Source of the DNA: a virus
Virus record (IMG/VR): IMGVR_UViG_3300016657_000126
Location: 88,885 to 152,884 of that record
DNA length: 64,000 nucleotides
Direction: 5' to 3' (one strand)
Under the pieces are notes generated by a model, which worked only from the letters and a program-made list of their open reading frames with translations, was not told where the DNA came from and searched no databases. This document shows positions 1 to 27,701 of this stretch, piece by piece (positions within the stretch are counted from its first letter, which is position 1; every line of letters starts with the position of its first letter). A program made the position numbers and the translations under genes.

Positions 1-213
1 GGTGAAGTAACCCGAATTCGTGTCCATCCTGGTCACAGCCCAGACTTCCGGAACCAGAAGCACGGACGGGTCCGCCGCCGTTTTCTTTTCGCCAAACAGC
101 AGATTGCTGTCTCCGAAAACGCACTGACACGCGCAGTCGCTGTTGCTGACCGTATAACGCCCGTCGCCGTGAAAACGCAGTGTGGCGTGCTTTAGAGAAA
201 AATTAGGAAACAC
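1..213 (-). CDS. Partial hypothetical protein running off the left edge
   Basis: Own translation from GTG at 213 (MFPNFSLKHATLRFHGDGRY...). The frame is open to position 1 and overlaps the stop of the RNAP gene. Confidence 0.4.
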   Translation of the reverse strand, partial: MFPNFSLKHATLRFHGDGRYTVSNSDCACQCVFGDSNLLFGEKKTAADPSVLLVPEVWAVTRMDTNSGYFT

Positions 214-3200
214 TAGGTTCTTTGCCGGCGATGAGATCGCGCAGCTCTTGTTTTTTGAGCCCCAGCAGCGCGCGAATTGCGCCTTCGAAAGCGGGGTTCG
301 GTAGATATTCCGGGAGGTCGACTTTGCCCCAGCGGTTGCCGCCTACGAGGCTCTCGTCGAACAGACCACCCGCCACGGGGGCGAGCGTGTAGGGGTCAAC
401 GATCTCGCCGTGCTCCACAGGCAGGGCCTTGTGCTCGTCGAGATCCCGATCGGTGAACGGCCCGAGGCGGATGCGCCCCTTGCCGAGATCGCGGGTCTGG
501 ATGCCGGCGCCGGCGAGCAGCACTCGGAACTTATCCCAAACGAACGGGCGCCCCGGAGTCTTTGGCGTCTGACCTGCGCGGATCGCGCGCCAGAACTCGT
601 CGTTGCGCTGACCGCGGAGCGTAGCGGCCTCGCGGAGATTGGCGTAGGCTCCGCTGGACAGCATGGCGGAGATCTCAAGGCCGGAAAGGCGCTTTGACTG
701 CTGGGCGTCGCCGCCGCCGCGCGCTGGCTGCTGGTCGGAATTGCCGGAGACGCACACCTTACCATTACGCCGCACCACCAACCAACCGGTGCGCGTGGTG
801 GCACAAAAAACCTCCCCGCAATAGCGCTGTTTGAACCAGCTGCCTTTATACCTGGAATCCCGATTCTTTAGCTTATCCGAAACAAGCTCAGCGGAAGTCT
901 CCTTCAGGTGCACGTAAAGTGCCCAGTTATCCACACGAGTTTCAATCTGCCTACCACGCATCATTGACTTGCTACCTACCGATTTGGCCAGCTGAAGCAC
1001 AGAACCGATCCCATGGTCAAAGAGCATGCGTTGAATATCGCTCAAAAGCCCGTGACTAGAAGAGCACAAACCCATGACCTCGTTCTGAGACACGCGTTTA
1101 GGCTTTTGGTAAATTCCACGATAGCCGTCCCCAGCGCAGAAAGCGGTTAAAAACGCCTCGAATTCGAGGGGTCCGCAGTTCTGCAAATAAGCCGGAACAC
1201 GTTTCTCGTGGCACTGCTTTCCGCACGCAGCAAACAAACGCCCGAGCCGTTTGTCGTTACAGCGCAGGCCGCGCGCGTAAAATTCCCAGGCAGCGCCGAC
1301 GACACGCGTAAGCAAAGCTTGAATGTGCGCATACTTTTCCGGATTGGCCGACTTACTCTGCCAGATCACGAAACGCCCATCTTCCTCGATACTACCCTCA
1401 GCCAGATACCAACCAAGCAAAGCATAGAAATCCACCGATGAAACTTGGAGCGCCTCCGAATACTTTCGAGTATCCGATATCCCGGGCACAGTGATGATAC
1501 CAGCGTCTGACGTAGAAACCGTGAATCCGGCAGTGGGTATCTTCCACCTCGAGCGCGTGGAAAGTTCATGCGCCGAAATAGCGCGAGCCTTCAGCTGTCC
1601 GCGTGGATCCTTAGCAGAGCGCCTGTAAGGAATACCCCAGAACTTGTGATTCTCGGTTACAGCAAAGTCGACTTTTCTGGAGCGGTAGCTTAGCAGTTCA
1701 CCGTCAAAATCGTAACGGACCAAGCGCAGCGGCAGCTCGTAGCTTAGGCGCCCGCTTGCGATGTCCGGAGTAGCGAGCGAATCTTCCCGTGTGACGTCCG
1801 CCCACTTCTTCCAACCGCTCTGGGTGAGCACCTCGGTGTCCGCATCGTAACAATCGTAGCCGCCTTGACCGCGAGACGAGGTCTTCGAAGAGGCGGTGTG
1901 ATGCAGCTTCAGGACCGCACCCTCGCCGACGGTCACCGGACGCTTGAGCGTGCGGTTCAGGACGGGATCGAAGATCTGCTCGGTGTCGTTCAGACCGACC
2001 GAGTCGAGATGCTTCCGAACGACGTCATAGAAGTATTCGCCGGGCTTTGTGTAGCTGGGGACAACGAGCGACTTTCCGAGCTTTCGCGCCACCTTTCCGA
2101 GCAGCAGCTCGTATTGCAGCGCGCTGTTCACGCGACTCGGTAGACCGAGTTCGTTGAGCAGCACATCGAGCGGGCGCCCGTCGGACGTGCGCGGCATCTG
2201 GTCGTCGGGAAGGATCTTTGAGATGACGCCTTTGTTGCCGGAGCGTAGCACGATCTTGTCGGCGGGACGCGCGGGGCGCAGGGAACGGACGATGACTTTG
2301 AATCCCTTCCCGGTCTTCACCACGTCCGTGATCTCTCCAGGCACCTCTTCCTCCCAGACCATGCTGGCGTCGGAACGCGCCTCGCGCACGGTCTTCGACA
2401 GCTTGCCGACCATGGAACTCGCGCTACTGACAACCTTCGGGCGCGTGAGCAGCATGAGTGGGTCGCCAGGCTGCACGATTTGACCCGGCTTCACCACGCC
2501 ATCCTCGTCCAACTTGTCGAGCTGATCGACTTTGAACGCGGTGGGAAAGAGAGACGTGAAGTGCTCGCGTCCACCCTTCACACCTTTCCGCAGATCGGTG
2601 TGAAAGAGGTCGGAGTGCTCGCTGGTCAGCTTCTTGGCGAAGCTCTCGCTGACGACGGTGGCGTCGTCCATCGAGTAACCCTTGAACGGGACCAGCGCGA
2701 TACGCGCGTTGGTGCCCAGCGCCAGCGTGCCGGAGGCGTCAGTGTAGTTGCTGCGGGCAAGAAGCTGACCGGGCTTGACGACGTCGCCTTTGCGCACGAC
2801 GGGCGTCTGGTGGATGCGCGTCTTGCGGTTGAAGGGAAGGCTGTCGTAGAGGTCCACCATCTTGTCGCCCTTGGGGCCGCGCAAACGGATGAGGCCGCCT
2901 TTCACGTCCACGACCTCGGCCGGCGCGTCGTCCTCGTGAAAGAGTGCGCCGGCCAGACGTCCAAGCTTCTGATCGAACGAGCGCCCGCTCTCGTCGTCGG
3001 GGTCGAGGTTCTGCACCAACGGCGCCTCCGGCTCTACGAGCGGAAGGGCTTGGTTGGCGAAGCGCGCGCCGTAGAAGAGACGCGGCATCTGCACCGCGCC
3101 CTGCAACGGGATGGTGTTGACGTTGGTGCCGAACTGGCGCGCGGGGGAACTCAGCGCGACATCGTAGTCCTCGCCTGGCTCGAGTTCCCGGAGGACGGAG

Positions 3201-3220
3201 TCTTGGATTATTGCAGGCAT
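203..3220 (-). CDS. Phage multisubunit RNA polymerase: beta C-terminal part fused to beta' N-terminal segment, intein-containing
   Basis: RpoB motifs GARFANQALPL, LALGTNARIA, GYSMDDA, DKIVLRSGNKGVISKILP, DVLLNELGLPSRVN, KLHH, QQPARGG, KRLSGLE. The C-terminal GGLFD...WGKVDL..LPNP resembles the RpoC N-terminus. Confidence 0.93.
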   Translation of the reverse strand: MPAIIQDSVLRELEPGEDYDVALSSPARQFGTNVNTIPLQGAVQMPRLFYGARFANQALPLVEPEAPLVQNLDPDDESGRSFDQKLGRLAGALFHEDDAPAEVVDVKGGLIRLRGPKGDKMVDLYDSLPFNRKTRIHQTPVVRKGDVVKPGQLLARSNYTDASGTLALGTNARIALVPFKGYSMDDATVVSESFAKKLTSEHSDLFHTDLRKGVKGGREHFTSLFPTAFKVDQLDKLDEDGVVKPGQIVQPGDPLMLLTRPKVVSSASSMVGKLSKTVREARSDASMVWEEEVPGEITDVVKTGKGFKVIVRSLRPARPADKIVLRSGNKGVISKILPDDQMPRTSDGRPLDVLLNELGLPSRVNSALQYELLLGKVARKLGKSLVVPSYTKPGEYFYDVVRKHLDSVGLNDTEQIFDPVLNRTLKRPVTVGEGAVLKLHHTASSKTSSRGQGGYDCYDADTEVLTQSGWKKWADVTREDSLATPDIASGRLSYELPLRLVRYDFDGELLSYRSRKVDFAVTENHKFWGIPYRRSAKDPRGQLKARAISAHELSTRSRWKIPTAGFTVSTSDAGIITVPGISDTRKYSEALQVSSVDFYALLGWYLAEGSIEEDGRFVIWQSKSANPEKYAHIQALLTRVVGAAWEFYARGLRCNDKRLGRLFAACGKQCHEKRVPAYLQNCGPLEFEAFLTAFCAGDGYRGIYQKPKRVSQNEVMGLCSSSHGLLSDIQRMLFDHGIGSVLQLAKSVGSKSMMRGRQIETRVDNWALYVHLKETSAELVSDKLKNRDSRYKGSWFKQRYCGEVFCATTRTGWLVVRRNGKVCVSGNSDQQPARGGGDAQQSKRLSGLEISAMLSSGAYANLREAATLRGQRNDEFWRAIRAGQTPKTPGRPFVWDKFRVLLAGAGIQTRDLGKGRIRLGPFTDRDLDEHKALPVEHGEIVDPYTLAPVAGGLFDESLVGGNRWGKVDLPEYLPNPAFEGAIRALLGLKKQELRDLIAGKEPSVS
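740..1852 (-). mobile_element. Intein with LAGLIDADG-type homing endonuclease (371 aa) in RNAP beta
   Basis: Starts CYDADTEVLTQSGWK, has block B VTENH and endonuclease blocks LLGWYLAEGS and FLTAFCAGDG, and ends VRRNGKVCVSGN followed by S+1. It is visibly more AT-rich than its flanks. Confidence 0.93.
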
Positions 3221-5751
3221 CAGCCGGTGAGAGCGGAGTGGCTAGCCTGCCCGAACAGTTGCGACTGCGCAATGCTTCCGAGCAGGCGGGCGATCTCGCC
3301 GCCGATGCCGCCGCGGTCTGAGAAGGGCAGCTCGTGGTTGATGCCGAGTTGCGGGCGCGAAAACCCGCCGCGCATGCCGAGATTCTGCATCGTGACGTCG
3401 AAGTCGGGGTTCGCGCTTGGGTATGTCGCGTTCTGGGCGAACAGCCGCCGGCCGGCGTCATCCTGCTGACCGAGCACGCGCTTCAGTCGAGGATCGTCGG
3501 AGCCGGAAATCTCGTAGGGGCGGAGCTCGTCCCATCCAGCCGGAGCCCCGACACCTTGGAGCACAGATTGACCAGCGCCGAAGCGCGCCAATCCACCCAG
3601 CAGGCCCGGGCGAGAGAGCACGGGAGCAGCCCAGCGGGTGCCGAGGCCGGTGACCAGGGAACCTCCGCCAAATGCCAGCCCGGTCACGAACGGCGAGGCG
3701 GCGCTGGCCCATGCGCCCGCGGTTCGCTTCGAGGCGTCAACGAGACCACTACCATCCCCGTCGCGGATGGCGTCGCCCATGTCCATCATACCCATACTGG
3801 TCCTGGCGATTGAGCGAAGACCGTTCTCTCCGACGCCGGCCGCCCACTTCAGGGGGTTCCAACCGCCGAGATCCGCGTTGACGGCGCGATTGATGAGGCT
3901 GCCGCTGCCGTCGACGCCGTCAGCGGTGACGTAGGTGGAGCCAGGGCGCCCATGCGCCCACTCCTTCAGCGCGTCCCACTCGAAACCCGCGGGGTCGGTG
4001 GGAGCCTGCTGCTGGAAAAATTTGCGGCGACCGAGATCGTCGACGAACACGCGATTTCCCGCGCTGTTCACACCGACGATTCCTTGGCTGGTGCGCTGCA
4101 CCGTGTAGCCGGCACCCTGAAGACGTGCGTGCTCTTTCTGCAGGTGCTCAGGGATCGCAGGAGTCGGAGCCTGCGCAGGAGCCGGAGCCTGCGCTGGTGC
4201 GGCTGGAGCTTGCGGCACGGGAGTAGGAGTGGGAGTCGCCGGAGTTTGAGGCTTGGGCGATTCGAGCGTGGAAGGGGCCCACACGGGCGTGGCGCCGGTG
4301 CCGGCGCTGGGCTTACCGTCGGCGGCGCGCTTGGAAAGCGATCCGACGACCTTCTGGGTCTGCTTGACCAGGTAGCTCATTGCGGGCGACGGCTTGGCCG
4401 GCTTCACCGGCGCGGGCGCGGCAGGCGCCGGCGTGGGAGTCGCGGCGATCTCCATCTGCTTCTGCTGAAGCTGCGCCTGCTGTTGCTGCTGCTGCATGGC
4501 CATCTCGGCCTGCTGTTGCTGCTGCATCACCTGCTGCTGTTGTTTGGCGGCATCGGACTCGGCGACCTGCTGATCCCGGGCTTGGCGGAGATCGGAAGCA
4601 TAGTTCGAAAAAGTGATCGGCTGGCCGGCGGGGCGCTCGCGGGCGGGGATGAAGCCGGCGGACTTCATGACGATATCCGCGTCCTGCACCAGCGGATGAA
4701 GGCGCCCGTCGCGGCCACGGCGATAAGTCCGGAGACGGCTCTCCTCGCGCATCTGCCGCTTGATGTCGCGCCCGAGCGCATCGGTGACCGTGTCCGGAAG
4801 ATCGACGAGCTGTTCCATCGGGAGCTCGACTTCCGTGAACGTGCCATCCGGCCGCGGGAGGCGCACGCGCACGCGCCCCTTGTCCTGGGGTTTGCGCAGA
4901 GAACGCATGCCCTTGTAAAGCAGGAGGCCGAGCGCGCCCAAACCCAACCCAGCACCGCCCGCCACGAACATGTCTTTCTTGGAGATGACGGGGGCGGGCT
5001 GGCGCTGCGCGATGTCCTTGGTCGCGGCGTCCATAAGCGGGCCGGCTTTACTGAGGGGCTCGAGAGCTTGCACAGCCAAGTCCTTCGTCGGAGCTAGCGC
5101 CACCAAACCCGCGCCCTGCAGCCAGTCACCCGCATGAATTTTTGCTCCGGCGCCGGCGCCAAGCGCCGCGTTCACCACACCCATGCCGATACGCTGCGGA
5201 GAGATGTGGTCGTAGTCCGGACCGTGGACGATGAAGTCGGTGCCGGCGGCTCCGGCCAACGCGCCAACGAGCGGAGCTGCCCAGCTGGCGGTGCTCGCTG
5301 ACTTGTGCTGCACGCGCACGCCGAGGGAGGCCGCGAGCGCCATGGAAGGTTTGTTGCTCGGAACGATGAATGCGCGCACCTCATCGACGCCGGCGGCCTT
5401 CTCGCGGATGAGAGACGCGACAGCCTTCTTCGCGATACCGCAGCAGCGATGCTCCGGCAGCACTCCGATGGCGTAGTAGCCGATTCGGCGACCCTGCTCT
5501 TCGCGCTCTTGCCAGCCGGCGAATCCGAACGCCTTCTTCGTGTGCGCGTCCCGGATCAGGTAGGCGCCTCCATCGAGCATGTCGGTGTTCACGCCGTAGG
5601 GCCAGAACTGCGGCGTCTCCTCGTAGATGCGCTGCATGATGGCCTCGCACTCGGCGCGGGGATTGGAGTCGATGGCGGGCGACGCGCCGCTGGCTTGCTT
5701 GACCAACTCGGCCCGAAAAGGGTGATAGGTAAAAAAGAAGTCCGGCAGCAT
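3220..5751 (-). CDS. Putative virion/internal head protein with N-terminal GNAT acetyltransferase domain
   Basis: GNAT motif A (AIGVLPEHRCCGIAKKAV) and motif B (NKPSMALAASLG). These are followed by Gly/Ala-rich hydrophobic segments, poly-Q and Pro-rich linkers, and several K-x-A motifs. The virion role is inferred. Confidence 0.65.
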   Translation of the reverse strand: MLPDFFFTYHPFRAELVKQASGASPAIDSNPRAECEAIMQRIYEETPQFWPYGVNTDMLDGGAYLIRDAHTKKAFGFAGWQEREEQGRRIGYYAIGVLPEHRCCGIAKKAVASLIREKAAGVDEVRAFIVPSNKPSMALAASLGVRVQHKSASTASWAAPLVGALAGAAGTDFIVHGPDYDHISPQRIGMGVVNAALGAGAGAKIHAGDWLQGAGLVALAPTKDLAVQALEPLSKAGPLMDAATKDIAQRQPAPVISKKDMFVAGGAGLGLGALGLLLYKGMRSLRKPQDKGRVRVRLPRPDGTFTEVELPMEQLVDLPDTVTDALGRDIKRQMREESRLRTYRRGRDGRLHPLVQDADIVMKSAGFIPARERPAGQPITFSNYASDLRQARDQQVAESDAAKQQQQVMQQQQQAEMAMQQQQQQAQLQQKQMEIAATPTPAPAAPAPVKPAKPSPAMSYLVKQTQKVVGSLSKRAADGKPSAGTGATPVWAPSTLESPKPQTPATPTPTPVPQAPAAPAQAPAPAQAPTPAIPEHLQKEHARLQGAGYTVQRTSQGIVGVNSAGNRVFVDDLGRRKFFQQQAPTDPAGFEWDALKEWAHGRPGSTYVTADGVDGSGSLINRAVNADLGGWNPLKWAAGVGENGLRSIARTSMGMMDMGDAIRDGDGSGLVDASKRTAGAWASAASPFVTGLAFGGGSLVTGLGTRWAAPVLSRPGLLGGLARFGAGQSVLQGVGAPAGWDELRPYEISGSDDPRLKRVLGQQDDAGRRLFAQNATYPSANPDFDVTMQNLGMRGGFSRPQLGINHELPFSDRGGIGGEIARLLGSIAQSQLFGQASHSALTG

Positions 5752-5764
5752 GGCGTATAGGTAA

Positions 5765-5792
5765 GACGGTCGCGGATTTGGCCGCGACCGTC
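5765..5792. promoter_or_regulatory. 11-bp perfect inverted repeat just upstream of the 5751 start, overlapping a minus-strand TTGACG hexamer
   Basis: gacggtcgcgg-atttgg-ccgcgaccgtc. Confidence 0.5.
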
Positions 5793-5807
5793 AACCGTTG
5801 CACTGGT

Positions 5808-6650: not shown

Positions 6651-6677
6651 TTGGACGGATGGTGTGGGTTAGAAAGT

Positions 6678-7093: not shown

Positions 7094-7316
7094 ATTTTTG
7101 CTCAGTTAAGATTTGAAGTTTTCGACGATTCACTTCGCGCATTCGCTGCGCAATTAGAAACACGATCGTCAACGCGATTAGCCAGATCAATCCGGCCCGT
7201 CGAGGAATAGAATTCCACCAACAAGTGGCCAGCACACCAACAACGCACAATAGCACGCCCTGCTGAACTGCGCGCCAGCGCACCATGTTTATAGCGGCTT
7301 GCTGGCGATCGATCAT
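7080..7316 (-). CDS. Small membrane protein with two predicted TM segments
   Basis: Hydrophobic stretches GVLLCVVGVLATCWW and LIWLIALTIVFLIA; ATGA overlap with the upstream gene. Confidence 0.6.
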   Translation of the reverse strand: MIDRQQAAINMVRWRAVQQGVLLCVVGVLATCWWNSIPRRAGLIWLIALTIVFLIAQRMREVNRRKLQILTEQKYAKR

Positions 7317-8059
7317 ACCGAGGTCTTAGCGCGGGCGCGCGAGTAGGAGTAGGTGATGCCTTCGGCGTCCATGCGTTTGAGCGCTGCGGCGTGCTTCGAC
7401 CCGGCCGGACCTGTGCCATGGATGAGCAGTGCGAAGGTCTTACCCTGCATGGCCAGCGTATCGTTGTGATCGATCTCCAGTCCCTTTGCTTCGGCCTCCT
7501 CCGGGTGGAAGACCACGACAGCCGACGGTAGCTTGAACTTGTCGATGAGCGCGTCGTGCTTCCCCCCGCGACTGGCCACCAGCGCAAGGTTCTCGGGGAG
7601 CATCTTCAGGCGAGCCACCCAGAACGGAAGACTCTTCGTGTAGGCGTAGAACTTCGTTCCAGAGAAATCGCGCGCGGCGTTCAACCATGCGTCGAAGTAA
7701 TCCTGGTTGAAGAAGTCTCCGGCGACATGGATGCGCACGGCCTTTGTGCTGCGCGTCACGTGCTCTCCGAGCCCGTCGATGATCAGCCGCGTCATCGCTT
7801 CGGTGGACTTGGCCTCGGTCAGCAGCTTAAAGTTATGCCAGCGCGCCGCGCGGACATTTTTGAATGCGGCCTCAAGCGTAGCGGAAAAACAGCGAAATTC
7901 GGTCTTCGGCCCATCCGTGATGGTGCCTACGTCGGGGTCGGCTTTTGAGAGGCACTGCAGCGCGCCCGGGCAGCTAAAGCCTGCGGGGATCGAAAACGTG
8001 AGAACCTTCTCGCCGAGCTTTTGGTTGTCGGACGAGAATTTGAGTTTAGATTCTGACAC
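7313..8059 (-). CDS. GP88-like phage protein (Cys-rich, radical-SAM-related fold)
   Basis: N.KLG, FSIPAGFSCPGA..C, RCFSA, RIHVAGDFFNQDY and FYAYTKSL motifs typical of the Gene product 88 family. Confidence 0.8.
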   Translation of the reverse strand: MSESKLKFSSDNQKLGEKVLTFSIPAGFSCPGALQCLSKADPDVGTITDGPKTEFRCFSATLEAAFKNVRAARWHNFKLLTEAKSTEAMTRLIIDGLGEHVTRSTKAVRIHVAGDFFNQDYFDAWLNAARDFSGTKFYAYTKSLPFWVARLKMLPENLALVASRGGKHDALIDKFKLPSAVVVFHPEEAEAKGLEIDHNDTLAMQGKTFALLIHGTGPAGSKHAAALKRMDAEGITYSYSRARAKTSV

Positions 8060-8609: not shown

Positions 8610-9017
8610 CTACGGAGCTGACGCTGTCAAATCTGCGACATAGAGGCGCGGCTTCATAGCAGCCACCTTAGCCTGATAGAACTCGCAACCCTTGTCCGCG
8701 CGAAACCCAGGCGCCAGCAGCCGGACCGGCTCGGTCGGGATGAGGGTGTATATGCAGCTCGGCGGGGTATTCAACGCCAGCGCGAGCTGCTTGGCATTAG
8801 ACGCCTCGAGTTTAGTCGGCATCACGCCGCCGCAGAGCTCGCTAACGAACTCCTCGAACGTGCCTACCGTCTGCGCCTCCACGATAGCGAAAGGCCCAGG
8901 AAAACCGTCTTTGTAGTTTCGCGCGGTCAGTTCGGCCTGACTGGCTGCGTCCATGACACGCGCGTGCTTACCGAGGCCGGGCGTGTCGACCTCGAGCCAG
9001 ATTAGGTTGCGAGGCAT
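8610..9017 (-). CDS. Hypothetical protein
   Basis: 135 aa ORF with start/stop overlap with tmk. Confidence 0.65.
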   Translation of the reverse strand: MPRNLIWLEVDTPGLGKHARVMDAASQAELTARNYKDGFPGPFAIVEAQTVGTFEEFVSELCGGVMPTKLEASNAKQLALALNTPPSCIYTLIPTEPVRLLAPGFRADKGCEFYQAKVAAMKPRLYVADLTASAP

Positions 9018-9658
9018 CAGCCGCGCGCACGCTGAACGCTGCGGTAGACCAACCCGGTGCGTTTCGCTGAACCCGGTTGGCGCGAGAATGGAAGCTCGAT
9101 GAACTCCACGTTCTTCAGCGAAGAGACCAAGCGGAAAACCCGCGTGACTTTGGCGTAGGCCTCGCGCTCGCGGCTCACCTTGAACATGTCCTCCACCGCG
9201 TCCTTTTCGGAGCGCGCAAGATGAGCGCTACCCTGTCCCGGCTTGCAGCAGGCCACGATCACCTTTGTGTCCGCAGGCAGCAGCTTCACGCACTTGTCGT
9301 AGAAGTGATGAGCGAACGGAATGTAGTCGCGGTTGCGGAGATGCCCTTGGTAGACGCCGGTGGAGATGAAGCCGCGGTCGACGATGACCAGCCGATCAGG
9401 AACCTCGGGGTGTGATAGCACGCGCCCGATCTCCTGATACAGCTGCACACGGGCCTCGAGAAGGAGGGCCGTCTGCGTGTCCGGCGTCAGCTTGTCGGCG
9501 TGCCCCTTGATGATGTCGCGCACCAACTCACCGAACGGCGTGCCGCCCGGCTCGCGGAAAAGAACCGCCTTCGGGAACACGTCTTTCAGCGCATCGCGCA
9601 GCGTAGTTTTTCCGGAGCCGTTGGGCCCCTCAAGGATTACCAGAATTGGAGTTGGCAT
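9017..9658 (-). CDS. tmk: Thymidylate (dTMP) kinase
   Basis: LEGPNGSGKTT P-loop, FREPGGT, IVDRGF. Confidence 0.9.
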   Translation of the reverse strand: MPTPILVILEGPNGSGKTTLRDALKDVFPKAVLFREPGGTPFGELVRDIIKGHADKLTPDTQTALLLEARVQLYQEIGRVLSHPEVPDRLVIVDRGFISTGVYQGHLRNRDYIPFAHHFYDKCVKLLPADTKVIVACCKPGQGSAHLARSEKDAVEDMFKVSREREAYAKVTRVFRLVSSLKNVEFIELPFSRQPGSAKRTGLVYRSVQRARG

Positions 9659-11564
9659 TGATGAGAGTTTCGAGCTCTTGCTCGGTCATTATCTTGGTCC
9701 CTTTTTTCTCCGCGTCGCGCAGCTTCGTCGCGCCTGGCTCGATGCCGACGACAAGGTGGGTGACTTTTTTAGTTACCGAATCCTTGGTCATCGCACCGAG
9801 ATTCTCGAGCCGCGCCAGGTAGGCCGGGCGGTCCATCGACACACCACCAGTAACGCAGATCACCATGCCGGCGAGTGGTTGTGGTCCCTTCGACTCTTCC
9901 GCTTTCAAGCAGCCGAGGCGTTCCAGTCGGTCGAGTTGCAGGCGCAGCTGTGGTAGGTTGGCGATCCACCCGTCGATGAGCGCAGGCCCGAGAATAGCCG
10001 TCAGCAGGGGAATCGGCAGCTGCGTCACCGAACGCCAGCTGCCGCCAGCGTGCGCCAAGTCACGCGAGCGAGTGCGCCCAACCCCGGCAGGCGCGAGCGC
10101 GTTGATGAAGCGCCAGAGCGGCTGCTTCTTCACCTCTTCGCGTGATCGGAAGAAGCGAGCGCGGTCGCCGTCGCCCAGCTTGGCGGACGGATCGAGCTCA
10201 AAGTAGTCGGCGACCTCGCGAAAGTCCGGAAGCAGGGTGCGGATGAGCGCCTCGCCGGCGCCATCCCAGTCGAGGCTGTCCGGTCCGAGCGCGTAAAGCA
10301 GCTGCGCAACCAACACATCCTCGCATGCGGATGGGTTGGCCAGCCGATGAGCTGCCTCACCCTCCGTTCGGGTGATCATGTGCGCGCGGCCCTTGGAGTC
10401 GAAGAACAGCGCAGGCATGCGCCACGGTCCGCTGGGGTGTGGCGAGACCACCCGGTCCACGTGGGGAATCACCTCGCCTGCGCGGATGACCATGACTTCG
10501 GATCCGATGTTCACGCCTAGACGAACTACCTCATTCTCGTTGAATAGCGTGGCCGACGTCACGACCACACCACCAACTGAAACAGGCGCGAGCTTTGCCA
10601 CAGGCGTGATCACACCCGAGCGCCCAACCTGGAGGTCGATCGCCAGGACCGTCGTGCGCGCGGGCTTCGGCGGAAATTTGAACGCCACCGCCCAGTTGGG
10701 ATGGTTGTCGTTGGAGCCCCAGCGCACACGGTCCTCCGCGAAAAGCGCCTTCACCACGACACCGTCTTGGTCGAACTCAGCGGCGTCCATGTCCGACTGA
10801 AACTTGCCGAGAATCTCCACGAGTGCGTCCAGCTCCACACGGCTTAGCAGCACCAGCTGACGAAATACATTGGAGGTGTTCCGCGGGAAGTGTCGCACGA
10901 AATCATAGTCCGTCAGCCCGGCACGGAAGTTCTCGTGGGGCACGCAGCTGAAGGCTACGAACTCCACGCCCCGCTGCCTGGCCGCCTCCGGGTTGTTCGT
11001 GGCGAACGCACCGGCCGCCGCATTCCTGCAGTTGGCGAATTCCTTCTCGCCTGCGGTAACGCGCTCTCGGTTGCAGGCGGCGAGCGCGGCGCGCGATATC
11101 GCCAGCTCGCCACGCACCTCACCCGTGAACGGCACCGGAAGCGATTGGAGCGCCGACGGGAGTTTGGTAACCGGCACCGTGATGTCAGAACCGATGGTCC
11201 CGTCGCCGCGCCCGAAGGCGGAGCTCAACTGTCCCTTGTTATACAGCAGGCTTCCCGACATACCATCGAGCTTGGCCTCAATGACGATCGGCATGAAGTT
11301 TCGCTTCTGCCACCAGGCCCATAATTCCGCCGCCACCGTGTGCTTGGCCAGCGACAGCATGGGCGTCGGAAGTTTGACGGCGTCCTTGTCCGTCGCCGCG
11401 CCTACGGGACGAGTTTCACCCAGCTCTTCCTTCAGCCTGTCGTATTCGGCATCCGACGCTATCGGCGTCCCGTTGTAGTAGGCGTCCTCGAGGCGGCGGA
11501 GTTGCGCGCGCCGCTCTTCGCGCTGTTCTGGTGTGAGTGTCACTGTATGAGAAATTCGCAGCAT
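9630..11564 (-). CDS. ligA: NAD-dependent DNA ligase
   Basis: YYNG.P..SDAEYD, PMLSL, EAKLDG, RGDG..G.D.T, EVRGE, DGVVVK, AVAFKF, QVGRSG.ITPVA, RAGEVIP and a C-terminal BRCT. Start reassigned to MLRISH because of the overlap with the upstream ORF. Confidence 0.95.
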   Translation of the reverse strand: MLRISHTVTLTPEQREERRAQLRRLEDAYYNGTPIASDAEYDRLKEELGETRPVGAATDKDAVKLPTPMLSLAKHTVAAELWAWWQKRNFMPIVIEAKLDGMSGSLLYNKGQLSSAFGRGDGTIGSDITVPVTKLPSALQSLPVPFTGEVRGELAISRAALAACNRERVTAGEKEFANCRNAAAGAFATNNPEAARQRGVEFVAFSCVPHENFRAGLTDYDFVRHFPRNTSNVFRQLVLLSRVELDALVEILGKFQSDMDAAEFDQDGVVVKALFAEDRVRWGSNDNHPNWAVAFKFPPKPARTTVLAIDLQVGRSGVITPVAKLAPVSVGGVVVTSATLFNENEVVRLGVNIGSEVMVIRAGEVIPHVDRVVSPHPSGPWRMPALFFDSKGRAHMITRTEGEAAHRLANPSACEDVLVAQLLYALGPDSLDWDGAGEALIRTLLPDFREVADYFELDPSAKLGDGDRARFFRSREEVKKQPLWRFINALAPAGVGRTRSRDLAHAGGSWRSVTQLPIPLLTAILGPALIDGWIANLPQLRLQLDRLERLGCLKAEESKGPQPLAGMVICVTGGVSMDRPAYLARLENLGAMTKDSVTKKVTHLVVGIEPGATKLRDAEKKGTKIMTEQELETLINANSNSGNP

Positions 11565-11848
11565 GCGTAATCGCTGCGCTGAACTATTAGCTGTCCGGGA
11601 AGAAGGCGGGATTTCGCGCCGAACCGAAATGGTGCGTCGTGAATCCCGCAGATCTCCAGCGCCGCTCTTAGATGCGGAGCGGCTCCTCGATGCGCGTCGA
11701 ACCACAGTTCCCAGAACGTCGAGGCGCCTGGAAGCGTGTCGATCAGCGCCTGTGCGAAGGCCGCTCTCTGCACGTCGGTAAAGCTGCCCTGGAGCTGCTC
11801 CGCCCACCACCGCGCCGCCCGTTCCACTTCTTCTTTCTTCAAAGCCAT
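11540..11848 (-). CDS. Hypothetical protein
   Basis: 102 aa ORF (AARWWAEQL...) tiling between genes. Confidence 0.65.
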   Translation of the reverse strand: MALKKEEVERAARWWAEQLQGSFTDVQRAAFAQALIDTLPGASTFWELWFDAHRGAAPHLRAALEICGIHDAPFRFGAKSRLLPGQLIVQRSDYACCEFLIQ

Positions 11849-21018: not shown

Positions 21019-21026
21019 GGGCTAAT

Positions 21027-23750
21027 TCACGCCGCCTGCTGACCCTGCGTCAACTGCTGCACCGCCTGCGAACCTGTCTGGCGGCGGAGACGCTCGGCCT
21101 TCTCCTTGACCAAGGCATGCAGCTGCGGATCGGAGCCGCGGAGGTAGTCGTAGAGGCGCTGCTGAGTGCCGGCGTCGGACTGAACGACCTGCTGCGCGTA
21201 TTGGTCGGCCTTGGCCATGATGTCCTGCGGAGATATGCCTGCGCCGCTTCCGCCGTCGGCCGGAGTGGCACCGGCGCCGCTGGGCGCGCCGAGAGTCCCT
21301 TGGGAGAACTCCTTTTCCAAACGCGCCTGCATCTCGGCCTTCGCCCGCTCGATCTCCATGTCCTCCTCGAGGCGACGGCGAACCTCTTCAACCGGGTCCT
21401 CGATGTTAAGAAACTGGAAGGCGCGCGTGCGGGAGACTTCGCCGCTGGCGGCCATCTGCACGATGATCGACCTGGCATCGAGGTCGTCGGCGGTGGACGG
21501 CGTTTTTAGTGAAACGTCGAGCTGCTCACGGTCGAGGAAGCGGGAAACCTCTCCGTTAACCCAGCGAGTGATGCGGGAGAAGTTTCTGAAAATGTGGAAG
21601 AAGTGATTCTCGAAAAGACGGAGCGAAATCGGCATCGCCTGCACGTTCATCGATCCGTTCCAAAGCTCGATCGGGTAGCCGGCGGCCTCGTTTACCTCGT
21701 TCTTCTGGAACATGAGACTGTCCTTCGGAGCGAGGACGCGGCCAGCGACATCGGTCTCCTGCAGCTGGACTGGGAACGGGAGAGAGTGCAGCGCGAACGG
21801 GTCGGAACGACGACGCTCGATCATCTGCCCGACGAAGCTGGTCCAGATGGGCGCCAGCATCTCGACGTCAGCGCCTGCCTGCCCGCCGGTGGCACCCGGG
21901 GTGATCATGCGCAGCGGGAGCATGTAGTCGAGGGCGACGGCCTCGTCGATCTTCCGAAGCACCTGCATCTGGAAGAGGGAACGGTAGTTCGCGATCGGAC
22001 CAGGCAGGCCCCAGCCGGAATTGGAAATGCCGCTGATGGTCGGCCCCTTCATGTGGAAGACGGCGCGCTCGTTGAACAGGTAATCCTGGTCGGCGCGCAC
22101 AGCCTCAAGCATGGAACGCGGGGTGAAATTCACCTCGTGCAGCACACCCTGCTTCACGTTACGGAGGAAGTCGGGCGGGAAGCGGTAGCACACCCGCGCG
22201 GTGCCTGCCATGGTGCTCGGAATCAGCGTGACGTAGCGCGGATCCAGGAGGCGGAGGCGAATTCGCGACGGGTCGCGAACGATGCGATCGACGAACGGCA
22301 GCTCGACACGGGCACGCTTGTGCATCGGGCGCTCGACCTCGCGGGGGTCCGGCACCGAGTATTTCATGCGCCCCAGATTGAACTGGGCCAGGTCGCCGAA
22401 CTGCGCGAGGTTCCATTCGATCTGGCGACCGCCGCGGAGGTCAACCAACACACGGTCGAAAGGAAAGTAAATCCAGGGGAAACTGTTACCGTAGCACTGC
22501 TTTGTGAGGATGGCGTTACCTACCACCATCGTGTGCGTGACCATCTCCACACAACAGAACACCTCTTCCACGCGCTCCGTCTCTCGCACCGCTTTAACGG
22601 CGATGAGCTTTCCGTAATTGCACGCTGGGTCGAAGTTCCTCTCGAAGTTCAGACGGTGCTCCGGAATCAGGAAATCTTCCGGGCGCATAAAGCGCTTCAG
22701 GAGAGTGAGGAGGTGAAGCTCGTGATCTTCGTAGGCGCGCCCGAGAATTTCGGTATCACGCACCTGCGAGTGAATTTTACCAGCCGCCATACCGATGCGC
22801 GGCAGCTGGTCGTAGATAGCCTCCAGCACAGAGCGATCAACTTGAGCCAGAATCACACTACCGTCGCGACGGAAGCAATGCCCGTCCGCGGCGAGGAATC
22901 CACTGACGAAACCATACCAGAATGAGGGGCTGGCATCGGCGCGGGGCATTTCGCTCATCCACTTGGGTAGCCCATGGACTACCACGCAGCCGTCCCGGTG
23001 CTTGTCGGGAACCGGCGCGCATCCGACTCCTTCGAAGAAAGGCAGCATGGCGGCGTCTTTGTCTCCAAAGAATCGCGCGATCGAACGAGTGCGGCGGGCT
23101 GAGCCGTCACCGAAAACAAACCCATTCCGGACGCCGTCAAGGTAGTCGGCATTCTTTGGCGGGCGCGGGGCGACCGTGCGCGCGATGCGGTGCCCGGGGA
23201 GCAAGTCGCGCGTAGTCACGACGCGCTCTGCACCGCTCATGTTGCGGATCTCCCACTGATGCTCGGGTGTGGCCGCCATGCGTTGACCATCACTGAACTC
23301 GACTTCCATGAGGCGCTGCACGCCGTAGGATTTGAAGTCGGCCGGGCGGAAGACGCCGCCCTTAGACAGCACCTCCACGCGCCGCCCCGTCAGCTCACGA
23401 ATAGGGAACACGCCCTCCCGGGTGGTCACCTTGGTCTCTCCGGCAAAGCACGCGTGCTCGTTTCCCGCGGTGAGAAGGAACTCGAGCATACCAAGCTCAT
23501 CCTTCATGTAGGTGAGCCAGTCGCCGCGCTCCTTCACGCCGCCCTTCTTGGAGTCGAACTTGAAGTCGGTGACGAAGTAGCTGCTCGTGCGTTCCGCCGC
23601 CTTGGCATAGGCGGGATTCATGTAATAAAGGAACAGCGCGAAATCCATGACCGACTGGTGGTCGGTCGGCATAACCGAGCTACTGGGCAGCAGGAACGGG
23701 TCGTTAAAGCGACGCGCGCTCTGGCCGAATGCAGAAGTTCCCAGGATCAT
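21027..23750 (-). CDS. Portal-like protein, intein-containing
   Basis: About 590 aa after intein removal. Has the YGNSF motif, a VFHMK...GWGLP segment and a C-terminal acidic coiled coil (EEVRRRLEEDMEIER), and heads a structural-type cluster. Confidence 0.75.
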   Translation of the reverse strand: MILGTSAFGQSARRFNDPFLLPSSSVMPTDHQSVMDFALFLYYMNPAYAKAAERTSSYFVTDFKFDSKKGGVKERGDWLTYMKDELGMLEFLLTAGNEHACFAGETKVTTREGVFPIRELTGRRVEVLSKGGVFRPADFKSYGVQRLMEVEFSDGQRMAATPEHQWEIRNMSGAERVVTTRDLLPGHRIARTVAPRPPKNADYLDGVRNGFVFGDGSARRTRSIARFFGDKDAAMLPFFEGVGCAPVPDKHRDGCVVVHGLPKWMSEMPRADASPSFWYGFVSGFLAADGHCFRRDGSVILAQVDRSVLEAIYDQLPRIGMAAGKIHSQVRDTEILGRAYEDHELHLLTLLKRFMRPEDFLIPEHRLNFERNFDPACNYGKLIAVKAVRETERVEEVFCCVEMVTHTMVVGNAILTKQCYGNSFPWIYFPFDRVLVDLRGGRQIEWNLAQFGDLAQFNLGRMKYSVPDPREVERPMHKRARVELPFVDRIVRDPSRIRLRLLDPRYVTLIPSTMAGTARVCYRFPPDFLRNVKQGVLHEVNFTPRSMLEAVRADQDYLFNERAVFHMKGPTISGISNSGWGLPGPIANYRSLFQMQVLRKIDEAVALDYMLPLRMITPGATGGQAGADVEMLAPIWTSFVGQMIERRRSDPFALHSLPFPVQLQETDVAGRVLAPKDSLMFQKNEVNEAAGYPIELWNGSMNVQAMPISLRLFENHFFHIFRNFSRITRWVNGEVSRFLDREQLDVSLKTPSTADDLDARSIIVQMAASGEVSRTRAFQFLNIEDPVEEVRRRLEEDMEIERAKAEMQARLEKEFSQGTLGAPSGAGATPADGGSGAGISPQDIMAKADQYAQQVVQSDAGTQQRLYDYLRGSDPQLHALVKEKAERLRRQTGSQAVQQLTQGQQAA
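22497..23450 (-). mobile_element. Gln-terminated intein with LAGLIDADG endonuclease (318 aa)
   Basis: Starts CFAGETKVTTREG, has block B ATPEHQW, NGFVFGDGS and SGFLAADGH, block F EEVFCCVE, and ends ILTKQ followed by C+1. Confidence 0.9.
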
Positions 23751-24458: not shown

Positions 24459-25138
24459 ATTGGCGGCGGAGGGGTTCTAAGTTGAGCGATGACTGCGGAA
24501 TCGAACCGCTCCGCTGTTTTTATGCGGAGCGATTTGTTATTACGAAAGTTTTTTAGCGTGCTCAGCACGTTGACGTAAAGGTCGGGTTGTAGCGCGTGCG
24601 AGGCTATCAACTGCGCGGGATCCCTTCGGTGATCGGCGATAACGACGGAAGGTGTCGGATTTCTCCCAGAGCCGGGATCGTAGTGGATCTGGAACACCGT
24701 GGATTTGTCCACGGCCACGGCCAGCAGCGGGCGGGTTTCGCGCGCGGTCGATAGGGCGAGCTCTGTGTCGAAGCCGGCTATACCCAGCTGCTCCATGAGC
24801 TCGAACATCAGACGACGGCACGAGCGTTCTGAGATTTGCGCCTGGCCCGCCAGGAGAGCGCACATCAGCTGGAACTGCTCGACCTGCTTTTCGCGCGCGG
24901 TGGCGTTAACTTTGGCACGGACAGCGTTCGCGTAGGATGAACCTAACCCACGAAACCAGCCGCGCACCTCGCCCGGTTTTCGTGTCAGTGGTATCGCCTG
25001 GTGCTTTTTATACTTATACCAAGTGGGACGGCTGATACCGGCGCGCCTGCAAAACTCGGAGACGGAGAACTTGTCGCACAGACGAGACAGTGCCGCGAAA
25101 ATTGCGGCACTGTCTTCCTTGCTGATGAGCTCCCGCAT
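24455..25138 (-). CDS. HTH (XRE-like) DNA-binding protein
   Basis: FSVSEFCRRAGISRPTWYKY; start reassigned to MRELISKE just after the 25140 stop. Confidence 0.7.
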   Translation of the reverse strand: MRELISKEDSAAIFAALSRLCDKFSVSEFCRRAGISRPTWYKYKKHQAIPLTRKPGEVRGWFRGLGSSYANAVRAKVNATAREKQVEQFQLMCALLAGQAQISERSCRRLMFELMEQLGIAGFDTELALSTARETRPLLAVAVDKSTVFQIHYDPGSGRNPTPSVVIADHRRDPAQLIASHALQPDLYVNVLSTLKNFRNNKSLRIKTAERFDSAVIAQLRTPPPPI

Positions 25139-25139
25139 C

Positions 25140-25349
25140 TCAGGCGGCGGGAGCAGAAGCACCCGCCTTCTTTTGATTGAGGACCTCTTGGCGAATGCCG
25201 CTGAGGCGTTGATCACGCTCCTGGTAATCGGAGCGGTAGCTGTCGAGGGTGCTGTCGATCTTGTCGGCGGGGACGCCGCTGATAGCGGCGTGCGACACGA
25301 AGCCAAGTTCGCGCGCGGATTGGATTTCTTGCTCGGTGGGTTCGTCCAT
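25140..25349 (-). CDS. Small hypothetical protein
   Basis: 69 aa, tiles exactly between the RNAP fragment and the HTH gene. Confidence 0.65.
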   Translation of the reverse strand: MDEPTEQEIQSARELGFVSHAAISGVPADKIDSTLDSYRSDYQERDQRLSGIRQEVLNQKKAGASAPAA

Positions 25350-25350
25350 T

Positions 25351-26091
25351 TTAGTCGGGGAGTTTCACCGAGAGATCTTGTGTGTCCTCCGGTGAAAGCC
25401 AAATAAAATCCCCGTCGCGATTCACGAAGCGCTGATAGATTTTATTGTCGCTGCCGAGTTTTGTCCCGGTCGCGGCGCGAACATCAACACCGGCGAGTTC
25501 ACTTTCCGGACCCTCGGTCGCGGAAACGAACCCGAACTGCGAGGCATCGACTGCCTGCATCTCTGGTGTGATCGCATCTGAAGAACCGATACCGCCAGGA
25601 CCCATGTGCGTGAGCCGGCGCGCCTGTTCAACGAGGTGCAGCGGGTTGATCTCCTCGAGCGGAAGCGCGAGAGGATTTCCGTTTATCATACCGTCAACGT
25701 AGCTGTCGAAAGCGCCGGGCTGAAGGGCGGACAATGAACGCTTGCGCGCTACGAGCGCGGCGATCTGGCGTCGCGCTCGGTCGGCGTCCAGTCGAATGCG
25801 CTCTTTCAGGAAAGCCGCCGGCGTCATCACGCGTTTGTAGGCGTAGTGGTCCCGGTTATCCGGCGTCGCCACGCCGCGGTTAACGTCGAGCAGCTTGGAG
25901 GACGCTTCGACGATGGCCCCGACGCCGACCGGAACGTAGGGCTCGGGATCGTCTTTGTCCAAGACGATCATCGGCGCGTTGAGTGCCGGCGCTTTTTGTT
26001 TCGGAGCTTCAGCAGGCGCGGCAGGCGCGGAGAGAGGAGACACCATGCGCCGCAGCATCGCCGCAGCCTTTTCACGCGAGAAGCCGTTCAT
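25351..26091 (-). CDS. RNA polymerase beta subunit, middle (fork-loop) fragment
   Basis: DNRDHYAYKRV, EEINPL, RRLTHMGPGG, VDASQFG, EGPESELAGV correspond to RpoB DDIDHL.NRR, NPL, RR.SALGPGG, VHPTHYG, ETPEG. Confidence 0.88.
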   Translation of the reverse strand: MNGFSREKAAAMLRRMVSPLSAPAAPAEAPKQKAPALNAPMIVLDKDDPEPYVPVGVGAIVEASSKLLDVNRGVATPDNRDHYAYKRVMTPAAFLKERIRLDADRARRQIAALVARKRSLSALQPGAFDSYVDGMINGNPLALPLEEINPLHLVEQARRLTHMGPGGIGSSDAITPEMQAVDASQFGFVSATEGPESELAGVDVRAATGTKLGSDNKIYQRFVNRDGDFIWLSPEDTQDLSVKLPD

Positions 26092-27701
26092 TGAAAATCC
26101 CCCAGAGCCAGAGTTTTGTGCTTACGATGACAGTCGCTGAAAAGGACGGATCGCCCGACCACGACGGAGCCAGTCAGCGCGCAGGTTCCGACAAGCTCGC
26201 GAAGAGCGCCAGGCTTTATGTAGGCCAGCGTCAGGTGCGGCGTGTAGTTGGGGAAAGTGGAAATGAGTTTGTCGCCGAAAAACTTCCTGAGGAAGCGATA
26301 CAACTCACGCAGATCGCGCGACTCCACCGAGAGCTTCAGCACATCTTTGCTGGCGCCTTCAAAGAAAGAAATATCGCCGATTCGCGCAGCAATACGGTCT
26401 CCGCCCCAGGCGTCGAGCGCATCACGAATATCTTCGGGCGTCACACTCTGATCAAATCCCCACGCTACAGTGATGTGCGGATCACGCTCATCCTCGACGC
26501 GTTGTTCGCGCGGGACATTGCGGTCTGTCCACTCGACGATGTCGGCGGCAGCCTGCAGGGGAAGGCGTAGCATGAGGCAGCCGCGATCCCCGGGCTCGGC
26601 GGCCTTTTGCTTGGCCTCCTTCGGTAGCTCGAGGGTGGTTGGAGCGAGCTCGGTCTTCGGCGGTTCCTGCGTGGGTTTGCCGGCGGCAGCCAGAAAGGCC
26701 TTCTCATCCACAGACGGATCTTTCTGCAGAAAAGCGATGATCGCGTCTTCGAGCGCTTCCTTCGGGAGATCCAGGTCGATGCCCGCCTGGTGTTGCTCGT
26801 TCAGAAACACCGCCACCATGCGAAGGCTGTCGGCCTCGACGTTAGCGACTTTTGCCGAGTGCGACGAAACCAGCGGAGGCAATGCCTGCGGGATCACGCG
26901 CGCCTGCTTCATGGTCCCGCCATAGAAGCCAGGCAGGTGACGCTTGGCTACGCGTTCGTGCACCTGCGACTGCCCAAGCGCGTCTTTGACGGCCGCGATT
27001 TTGTCATCGCGCGCCGCCTCGGGTTTTCTCGCCCAGCGCGGCACCAGGCGCTCGTAAGCCTTGTCGACGACACGCGAGTCGTAGCGCTGGCTGTTGGCGG
27101 CGAACACCGCGTCACCCCAACGCTTCTTCAGCTCTTCATCCCCTACCCCGAGATCTTTGAGCAGGCTGTAAAGGTGCAGCTCGGATTGCTGAACGCTGAG
27201 GCGATACTGCGAGTCCTCCGGGCGGAAGAGCACACGGAAATTTGTTCCGCTACCTGGGCGCACATTGAACTGGGTCTCGAGTTCGCCGTTCTGCTTGCGA
27301 CGCGTGTAGGGGCCTGGAAGCAGCCGCAGCTGCTTGACGTGCACGTATTCGTTTCCGTCGCGGATGAAGGTTCCGCGCTCGGTGAGATGCGGGACGCGCA
27401 TGAGCGTCATGCGCTTTCGCTCGAGCTCCTGACCTGACTTCTCGTCAGATAGCACGACGGTTCCGCGGAGGCGTCGAACGAGGCGCGTGTCATGGAGTAG
27501 CGCTTTCTTTTGTTCGGCTTTACCGCGGTGGTCGGGATCTTCATAGTCCACATCCTCGACGTGCAGACGGAACCCGCCGTAGCTGAGCGGGAATGCCTGG
27601 GTCATGGCGGCCTTTGCGCCGGAGAAAATTTCACGGCGCTCCGAATCGAAATCCTCGAAATCTCGAAGCGCTACATTGGGCGGTAAAATCTCCTTTGGCA
27701 T
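26088..27701 (-). CDS. RNA polymerase beta N-terminal fragment fused to a C-terminal 2H phosphoesterase (Acb1/gp57B-like)
   Basis: RpoB-like VPHLTERGTFIRDGNEY...QLRLLPGPY. The C-terminal ~165 aa has two HxT motifs, DPHITVAWG and YTPHLTLAY. Confidence 0.88.
   Translation of the reverse strand: MPKEILPPNVALRDFEDFDSERREIFSGAKAAMTQAFPLSYGGFRLHVEDVDYEDPDHRGKAEQKKALLHDTRLVRRLRGTVVLSDEKSGQELERKRMTLMRVPHLTERGTFIRDGNEYVHVKQLRLLPGPYTRRKQNGELETQFNVRPGSGTNFRVLFRPEDSQYRLSVQQSELHLYSLLKDLGVGDEELKKRWGDAVFAANSQRYDSRVVDKAYERLVPRWARKPEAARDDKIAAVKDALGQSQVHERVAKRHLPGFYGGTMKQARVIPQALPPLVSSHSAKVANVEADSLRMVAVFLNEQHQAGIDLDLPKEALEDAIIAFLQKDPSVDEKAFLAAAGKPTQEPPKTELAPTTLELPKEAKQKAAEPGDRGCLMLRLPLQAAADIVEWTDRNVPREQRVEDERDPHITVAWGFDQSVTPEDIRDALDAWGGDRIAARIGDISFFEGASKDVLKLSVESRDLRELYRFLRKFFGDKLISTFPNYTPHLTLAYIKPGALRELVGTCALTGSVVVGRSVLFSDCHRKHKTLALGDFQ

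Follow-up and report, generated by a model that had tools for sequence, protein, structure and literature searches.

Five dispersed genes of an uncultured phage appear to encode one bacterial-type RNA polymerase, probably cut from a fused phage ancestor

When segments of the RNA polymerase beta subunit turn up in separate genes of a virus, are they the remains of a gene or the parts of an enzyme? This question was raised by a stretch of 64,000 nucleotides (the window), bases 88885-152884 of the 196,897-bp IMG/VR virus record IMGVR_UViG_3300016657_000126, which is rated complete. The original prediction for the window placed N-terminal, fork-loop, and C-terminal motifs of RpoB in three separate open reading frames (ORFs), and we found that each of these ORFs aligned to E. 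coli beta. The large subunits of this phage's RNA polymerase are spread over five dispersed genes, three of them inside the window, and the RNA polymerase pieces are scattered across ~115 kb of the genome. When the genes were mapped piece by piece to E. coli RpoB and RpoC and to gp206 and gp216 of Salmonella phage Arash, both subunits were covered once, without overlap or loss. This mapping indicates that the three window genes and two others make up both large subunits of a single bacterial-type RNA polymerase. The G+C content is ~61%, and the minus strand holds nearly all of the genes treated here. Positions are those of the window unless marked as genome positions.

The three beta genes

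The features of the three window genes are as follows (aa, amino acids).

26088-27701, minus strand: gene for the N-terminal piece of beta (537 aa; polymerase core in residues 1 to ~330, then a linker and a 2H phosphoesterase)
26214-26561, minus strand: 2H phosphoesterase domain (residues 381-496) at the end of the N-terminal piece
25351-26091, minus strand: gene for the middle piece of beta (246 aa; fork and Rif-cluster region; Pfam Rpb2_3)
1853-3220, minus strand: N-extein of the C-terminal piece (residues 1-456; second double-psi beta-barrel with the GNKGVISKI motif; aligned by hhalign from E. coli beta 645)
740-1852, minus strand: intein of LAGLIDADG type (371 aa, residues 457-827)
479-739, minus strand: C-extein, final segment of beta (residues 828 to ~914; GEME-like and C-terminal clamp region)
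206-478, minus strand: relic of the beta-prime N terminus (residues ~915-1005, GGLFD...RWG...PNPAFE...LIAGKE; without the zinc ribbon)

The division of beta into three parts is real, because ORF by ORF these genes match successive segments of E. coli beta. Residues ~1-196 of the N-terminal piece correspond to E. coli beta 29-223 (29-195 by tblastn, 48-223 by hhalign of a profile of homologues). Residues 58-235 of the middle piece correspond to beta 423-609, including the fork and GPGG region (hhalign, probability 96%). The third ORF, 203-3220, encodes 1005 aa and matches Pfam Rpb2_6 at an E value of 6.6e-48; a profile of its intein-free homologues aligned to beta 645-1325 (hhalign E 2.6e-37), and the C-extein also matched beta 1256-1334 by tblastn, the hhalign alignment of this segment reaching beta 1325. 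The C-terminal motifs had been placed about 22 kb away from the others, and the distance between the middle and C-terminal pieces measured 22.1 kb. The starts of the polymerase pieces are translationally coupled: the start of the middle piece overlaps the stop of the N-terminal piece as ATGA, and the start of the C-terminal piece overlaps the stop of an upstream GNAT gene as TGATG. The polymerase pieces are free of internal stops. In the middle piece, the counterpart of rifampicin cluster I (25504-25965) departs from E. coli at several drug-contacting positions, for example His526 to Gln; given these changes at drug contacts, the phage enzyme is probably insensitive to rifampicin.

The intein interrupts the C-terminal piece within a conserved motif: its site, GQGGYD/SDQQP, is the counterpart of GSYS/LVTQQP in E. 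coli (the GxYS/LVTQQP motif, beta ~1252). It begins with CYDAD (Cys1 = C457), has TENH as block B, and terminates in ...VSGN (N827) before S828, so that it has the N-terminal Cys, the block B TxxH, and the C-terminal Asn followed by Ser of class 1 inteins. Two LAGLIDADG motifs are present (LLGWYLAEGS and FLTAFCAGDGY). The intein matched intein-bearing PHROG families and Pfam LAGLIDADG_3, with 25-28% identity to mycobacteriophage inteins, and orthologues of 635-645 aa exist without it.

The beta/beta-prime junction

The third ORF had also been said to continue directly into an RpoC-like start. Its last ~90 residues (GGLFDESLVGGNRWGKVDLPEYLPNPAFE...LIAGKE) aligned, column by column, with the stretch after beta in 15 relatives whose beta and beta-prime are fused, and in these relatives the chain continues from there straight to PVxPPxxRP, NRAPxLHR, and NADFDGD. 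A profile of this junction region matched bacterial beta-prime chains at an E value of 8e-89: profile positions 7-48, which are the tail, correspond to beta-prime 37-78, and the remainder begins at E. coli beta-prime 160. Throughout the family, beta-prime has no four-cysteine zinc ribbon. In the fused ORFs only 5-15 residues lie between the end of the tail and the start of the next beta-prime piece; thus, nothing was lost at the cut that ends the junction piece. The comparison indicates that the junction is left over from a chain in which beta had been completely fused to the front half of beta-prime. The betaC-beta'N fusion that had been listed among the breakpoints is therefore a real junction, inherited from a fused ancestor and not created by this fragmentation.

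The beta-prime pieces, sigma, and the missing subunits

No DxDGD motif of the catalytic beta-prime fragment had been seen in the window, and we confirmed this. The rest of the contig, where a search had been suggested, carries it as NADHDGD only 424 nt outside the window. The genes found there are as follows.

Genome 85879-88461: middle piece of beta-prime (860-aa ORF, ending 424 nt short of the window start; second gene downstream of the third ORF)
Genome 1316-4762, minus strand: back half of beta-prime (locus L007; 1148 aa; E. coli beta-prime 728-1285; ~81 kb from the middle piece)
Genome 74701-76101: sigma-70 (466 aa; regions 1.2, 2, 3, and 4)

Downstream of the third ORF come a 198-aa RuvA_C-like ORF and then the 860-aa beta-prime ORF. 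The last ~380 residues of this 860-aa ORF correspond to beta-prime 178-511 and contain NADHDGD; a NUDIX domain lies within its first ~480 residues, and the first ~120 residues of this N-terminal extension gave no Pfam match. The back half is 1148 aa long because of two inteins. It measures ~600-650 aa in relatives, and the insertions here are an apparent mini-intein at residues ~195-343 (ending ...IVSN/S) and a LAGLIDADG intein at ~473-845. Both catalytic motifs are thus retained in the enzyme, GNKGVISKI in the C-terminal piece of beta and NADHDGD in the middle piece of beta-prime.

Searches by tblastn and with PF00623 found one enzyme set only in the genome. Alpha (PF01000) and omega (PF01192) gave no Pfam match at E <= 1, whereas the controls matched in 14 of 14 genomes. 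The motifs had been judged to be of the bacterial type and distinct from the phiKZ/AR9 kind; profile matches to bacterial beta at E 1e-78 and to beta-prime at E 1e-89, the single enzyme set, and the phage's own sigma-70 bear this out. Genes for a C5 cytosine DNA methylase and an HNH endonuclease (genome 81273-83093 and 79128-79913; L003) lie between the middle piece of beta-prime and sigma.

Fused and split relatives

Arash encodes Rpb2_3, Rpb2_6, Rpb1_1, and Rpb1_2 in the single chain of gp206 (1525 aa) and the back half of beta-prime in gp216 (606 aa). Vibrio phage D181 has the same layout with a single cut, made by a free-standing homing-endonuclease gene at Arash position 517/518. We found the fused ORF at about 30 IMG/VR loci, with lengths of 1466-3031 aa, the longer ones containing inserts. 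Two of these loci, L009 (8513-16345) and L016, have the whole enzyme as a single chain: one 2611-aa frame encodes beta, both halves of beta-prime, and an insert.

A second group of 30-odd IMG/VR loci is split. Here the N-terminal piece is followed by a stand-alone middle piece, and there is no C-terminal piece within 10 kb. A large protein database yielded 104 stand-alone homologues of the middle piece (42-76% identity), of which 25 were aligned; all 25 terminate in ...KLPD or a near variant. There were 314 homologues of the N-terminal piece, the bare forms being ~360-375 aa long, and 296 of the C-terminal piece with its tail, mostly of 633-647 aa, some with inteins and a few continuing into beta-prime. 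The piece boundaries are repeated across all of these homologues at 42-84% identity. More than 100 relatives have precisely the breakpoints of this phage. Because these breakpoints recur in more than 100-300 metagenomic proteins, the five-piece layout is evidently old and selected.

In five complete relatives (184-212 kb), the genes for the middle beta, C-terminal beta, and middle beta-prime pieces are likewise separate and dispersed. Between the middle and C-terminal beta pieces lie 13-32 kb in four of these genomes and, if it is read as circular, ~68 kb in the fifth. One relative, G003, carries all five pieces, collinear with those of this genome. Among the six genomes, the middle beta-prime piece still lies beside the junction piece in this one only. 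A scan of GTDB genomes returned four contigs of metagenome-assembled genomes (MAGs) only (L078-L081, up to 203 kb) and no isolate or prophage. The MAGs with this polymerase are labelled Bacteroidales, a proteobacterium, Cytophagia, and Thermoanaerobaculaceae, and the four are probably phage contigs binned with bacteria.

Origin of the cuts

The fragments had originally been taken to suggest a separate capture and fragmentation of a bacterial rpoBC. We built a maximum-likelihood tree (LG+C20) of the C-terminal beta region from 59 sequences and 627 columns, with five bacterial RpoB; the duplicate loci L061, L065, L016, L018, L014, and L017 and the truncated L087 are left out. All phage forms made one clade (SH-aLRT support 100) on a long branch away from the bacteria. 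Within it the fused forms were paraphyletic; the split forms made a single clade (100), whose sister was a fused sub-clade (99). Since the split clade is nested in paraphyletic fused phage forms, the tree indicates that the cutting happened once, inside phage evolution, and that the cuts are derived. Every piece was also homologous to Arash gp206 or gp216, with BLAST E values of 1e-10 to 1e-60.

Could this lineage nevertheless have taken up bacterial rpoBC itself, after which the gene broke, the junction coming from rpoB-rpoC read-through or fusion? Such a capture accords with sequences that are far closer to the bacterial subunits than to those of archaea or eukaryotes, and Helicobacter and Wolinella do have a fused rpoBC (PMC1557499). 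However, it does not accord with a single, fully supported phage clade in which split forms sit among fused ones. Arash and about 30 fused relatives likewise lack the zinc ribbon and have the junction at the same position, and Rpb2_6 scores were 135-192 bits for the phage forms versus 415-448 bits for bacterial RpoB in the same MAGs. We consider independent capture very unlikely. A deep bacterial origin of the whole family would be compatible with the tree, in which five bacteria were sampled.

Added domains

The 2H domain of the N-terminal piece is intact, with both HxT motifs (PHITV and PHLTL). It matched Pfam 2_5_RNA_ligase2 (PF13563) at an E value of 5.8e-9 and 36.6 bits, above the cut-off of 27 bits, and also Acb1 (E 3e-4); the two HxT/S motifs together with the Pfam score place it in the 2H phosphoesterase superfamily. 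The nearest relatives, P0226 and P0227, carry the same fusion of N-terminal piece and 2H domain. Among the N-terminal pieces listed, about half are bare, and the others end in 2H/Acb1-like, NUDIX, GH108 lysozyme (in one relative only), DUF6624, or unnamed domains. In L033 (3320-5143), the N-terminal piece ends in an inorganic pyrophosphatase (InPase; E 5.5e-51). NUDIX together with an unnamed module of ~120 aa is found on the N-terminal beta piece in relatives and on the front of the middle beta-prime piece here. Thus, the phage has a trait of polyvalent proteins, a polymerase module joined to variable early-effector domains.

Two fused relatives, L058 (8876-10018) and L060 (8567-10000), have an in-frame insert of 380-480 aa in the beta lobe, at the same position as the first of the three cuts described below. 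Both inserts hold 2H-SAK and LNS2-like domains, and that of L060 additionally holds SET. These inserts indicate that the first cut was made at a site that already took accessory domains. The 2H domain of this phage and the 2H-SAK insert in L058 have only the HxT motifs in common, and so we make no case for a shared origin of the two.

A KQ(K)A-like motif occurs at three junctions of core and extension: AKQKAAEP (26600-26615), APKQKAPA (25990-26005), and SEKQAAAM (genome ~87000). In the proteome the motif was observed 9 times versus 3.5 +/- 1.9 expected, for a pattern picked post hoc; it is a hint, at most, of a processing site.

In Arash, RNA polymerase and sigma rank with the most abundant proteins of the virion (PMC10585845), and the same set of domains is found in injected polyvalent proteins, among them the N4 virion RNA polymerase (PMC5512222). 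On these two grounds it is reasonable, if less certain than the mapping of the pieces, to suppose that the enzyme is packaged in the virion and injected, as in Arash.

Proposed explanation and alternatives

How would five genes come to encode one enzyme? We think it likely, taking the explanation as a whole, that a five-gene enzyme was cut from an Arash-type fused phage ancestor. The ancestral ORF, of ~1470 aa, would have encoded the whole of beta along with the catalytic front half of beta-prime, and a separate gene would have supplied the back half. Three cuts would then have been made in this ORF, in the ancestor of a large uncultured clade. The first cut would fall in the beta lobe, within 225-420 of E. 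coli beta (the flanking alignments stop at 223 and resume at 423), in the lobe region that holds the E. coli insertion at 225-343. The second would follow the fork domain, at about beta 620-645. The third would lie at about beta-prime residue 165, the large-insertion site of Thermus, whose chain jumps from about 160 to 451 because of a lineage-specific insertion. With the cuts at these positions, the third gene would keep the C terminus of beta joined to the first ~90 residues of beta-prime. The C-terminal beta piece would first splice out its 371-aa intein from a motif of the catalytic center. The five chains would then assemble non-covalently into one core, with a phage factor of the sigma-70 family and without alpha or omega, and the retained junction would tether the beta and beta-prime halves of the clamp. 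With less certainty, the free ends made by the cuts would carry polyvalent-type effector domains, here 2H on the N-terminal piece. Cuts at surface sites are tolerated in cellular enzymes, as in the cyanobacterial gamma/beta-prime split and the split archaeal B and A subunits. We know of no cellular enzyme that is cut on either side of a beta/beta-prime junction which it retains.

Several observations weigh against parts of this explanation. The split type of enzyme, in this phage and all of its split relatives, is known from genes alone, and virion packaging is known from the fused relative Arash alone. A close homologue of the large sigma is present in only one of the five complete relatives; three have only small, weakly similar sigma-like ORFs, and none was detected in the remaining one. 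The penultimate residue of the intein is Gly and not the His expected of class 1 inteins, and His1237 of beta is replaced by Ser throughout the family. Active inteins without a penultimate His exist. The assignment of the tail to beta-prime is transitive, through profiles of fused relatives: hhalign of the tail directly to E. coli beta-prime 32-138 was weak (probability 3%), and the lone 94-aa tail sequence gave only chance cytochrome c matches against the PDB. Where these direct comparisons were weak, the profile of fused relatives decided the identity of the tail. Finally, the 2H domain inside the uncut chains of L058 and L060 favors a built-in accessory module over detachable cargo.

If the five genes were not parts of one assembled enzyme, they might be decaying remnants or an assembly artefact, in a phage that uses the host RNA polymerase steered by its own sigma. 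Many large phages do encode sigma factors only (PMC7598289). However, decay or artefact would have to yield identical boundaries and conserved motifs in hundreds of proteins from independent assemblies, together with coupled gene starts and open frames, in addition to complete genomes that carry the middle beta, C-terminal beta, and middle beta-prime pieces and, in G003, all five. This we find hardly credible. A mature enzyme could also be a fused chain again if split inteins rejoined the pieces covalently after translation (protein trans-splicing). Inteins are plentiful in the lineage: the C-terminal beta piece has one, the back half of beta-prime two, and the DNA polymerase one. However, Pfam found no Hint/intein domain at any fragment end. 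The end of the middle piece and the start of the C-terminal piece are homologous to the fused chain and leave no room for intein halves, and the terminal residues are not Cys or Ser after Asn. Trans-splicing is, in our view, highly improbable, and non-covalent assembly of cut pieces remains the explanation that we favor.

The role of the added domains is less settled. The appended 2H domain, and in relatives NUDIX, InPase, and the rest, could be working parts of the polymerase that act on RNA ends or pyrophosphate, and not injected cargo that is cleaved off. The in-frame 2H-SAK at the same lobe site of two uncut chains fits this, the InPase of L033 would clear a product of polymerization, and AR9-type virion RNA polymerases bear an HD phosphohydrolase (PMC7598289). 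On the other side, the domains differ from phage to phage and are missing from the bare half of the N-terminal pieces listed; the modules shift between ends of different pieces, behavior that is more typical of conflict effectors (PMC5512222), and the motif at the three junctions hints, weakly, at cleavage. We regard a working role as quite possible, while leaning against it. A bolder proposal, which we offer tentatively and are inclined to doubt, is that the cuts were not neutral: a fused, alpha-less, sigma-dependent virion polymerase would have become five modules, in which the junction replaces the tether of the alpha dimer and the ends, beginning from the beta-lobe insertion, dock interchangeable injected enzymes. 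If this is true, the five modules would be the multisubunit counterpart of an N4-type polyvalent virion polymerase, with 2H, NUDIX, pyrophosphatase, and lysozyme as the docked enzymes.

Neighboring genes

The gene upstream of the C-terminal beta piece (3220-5751, minus strand) encodes an 843-aa protein with an N-terminal GNAT acetyltransferase domain, and its stop is the one that overlaps the beta gene start. G003 retains this pairing, and L033, L039, L043, and L045 have GNAT homologues close to polymerase pieces. The 22-kb stretch between the middle and C-terminal pieces encodes an NAD-dependent DNA ligase with a BRCT domain, a thymidylate kinase, and a GP88-family protein (9630-11810, 9017-9658, and 7313-8059, all on the minus strand), and its remaining genes had no family match. 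One of them, at 21027-23750 on the minus strand, is a 907-aa ORF of unknown function whose orthologue in G003 has 618 aa; the extra ~300 N-terminal residues gave a weak LAGLIDADG match and so are probably another intein. The ORF upstream of the N-terminal piece (27806-29386) was considered as an Arash portal. It had no detectable match to that portal, and thus we make no claim that it belongs to the structural module.

Comparison with known systems

Phage multisubunit polymerases have so far been understood from the sigma-less, very divergent phiKZ/AR9 type. That type resembles the enzyme described here in having four to five beta/beta-prime chains, no alpha or omega, and a cut in beta-prime after the catalytic barrel (PMC7598289, PMC7824862); in its Bacillus phages a phosphohydrolase domain is fused to one piece, comparable with the added domain here. 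However, phiKZ/AR9 phages have two enzyme sets, virion and non-virion, and this phage has one. They have no sigma-70 homologue and recognize promoters through gp68 or gp226, whereas a sigma-70 is present here, and their sequences are very divergent where these give clear Pfam matches. Reviews of jumbo-phage polymerases cover only the sigma-less phiKZ/AR9 type and YonO-like enzymes (PMC7824862, PMC7598289, PMC13282480).

The multimeric-RNA-polymerase-encoding Caudovirales (mReC; Weinheimer and Aylward 2020, PMC7481178) are likewise uncultured tailed phages, some with genomes exceeding 200 kb, and their bacterial-like beta and beta-prime make up a deep clade of their own. The enzymes listed for them have a whole beta (~900-1520 aa) and a whole beta-prime (~890-1390 aa), often with two sets per genome. 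This phage has NADHDGD, in line with the NADxDGD of mReC beta-prime, but its beta and beta-prime are in pieces, of 246-640 aa when free of inteins, and not whole. The mReC survey demanded proteins of at least 800 aa, which pieces like these would fail, and its main text makes no mention of fusion, cuts, inteins, or sigma in those phages (PMC7481178). The five-piece form explains why surveys that require a long beta or beta-prime overlook these phages. In the literature searched, we found no description of the fused or the five-piece layout. Moraphages were considered for comparison and set aside as irrelevant, since they have no RNA polymerase.

The fused rpoBC of Helicobacter and Wolinella (PMC1557499) is a cellular case in which beta and beta-prime tolerate joining, as at the junction here. 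Polyvalent proteins such as the N4 virion RNA polymerase (Iyer et al. 2017, PMC5512222) share with this phage a polymerase joined to early domains of the 2H, InPase, and lysozyme types. Theirs is a single-subunit T7/N4-type polymerase in one giant chain, delivered with the DNA; here, unlike in the N4 type, the carrier would be pieces of a multisubunit enzyme that is known from genes alone.

The closest known system is that of Arash (gp206, gp216, and sigma gp10; OQ632216; PMC10585845) and Vibrio phages D69, D148, and D181, to which every piece is homologous at 26-35% identity. The Arash paper merely annotates the genes as beta and beta-prime and reports both proteins in virions (PMC10585845). 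The Arash type and this phage are alike in the run of the beta C terminus into the beta-prime N terminus, the absence of the zinc ribbon, the separate back half, and a gene of the sigma-70 family. They differ in that Arash has beta and the front half of beta-prime in one ORF, whereas three cuts divide these into four ORFs here, in a derived split sub-clade; one piece here also has an intein, and two have extra enzyme domains. Our comparisons indicate that the five-gene, intein-bearing form is a derived variant, and the most fragmented, of a large phage RNA polymerase family, with a five-piece layout common to hundreds of uncultured phages. The Arash-type family is a second, large, and easily aligned type of phage enzyme, which keeps sigma-70 without alpha or omega. 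From the single chain of ~2600 aa through the two-gene Arash form to the five-gene form, it offers a natural series, an experiment on cut sites, on cohesion without alpha, and on the sites that tolerate foreign domains. Because Arash is a cultured member, questions about the family can be tested.

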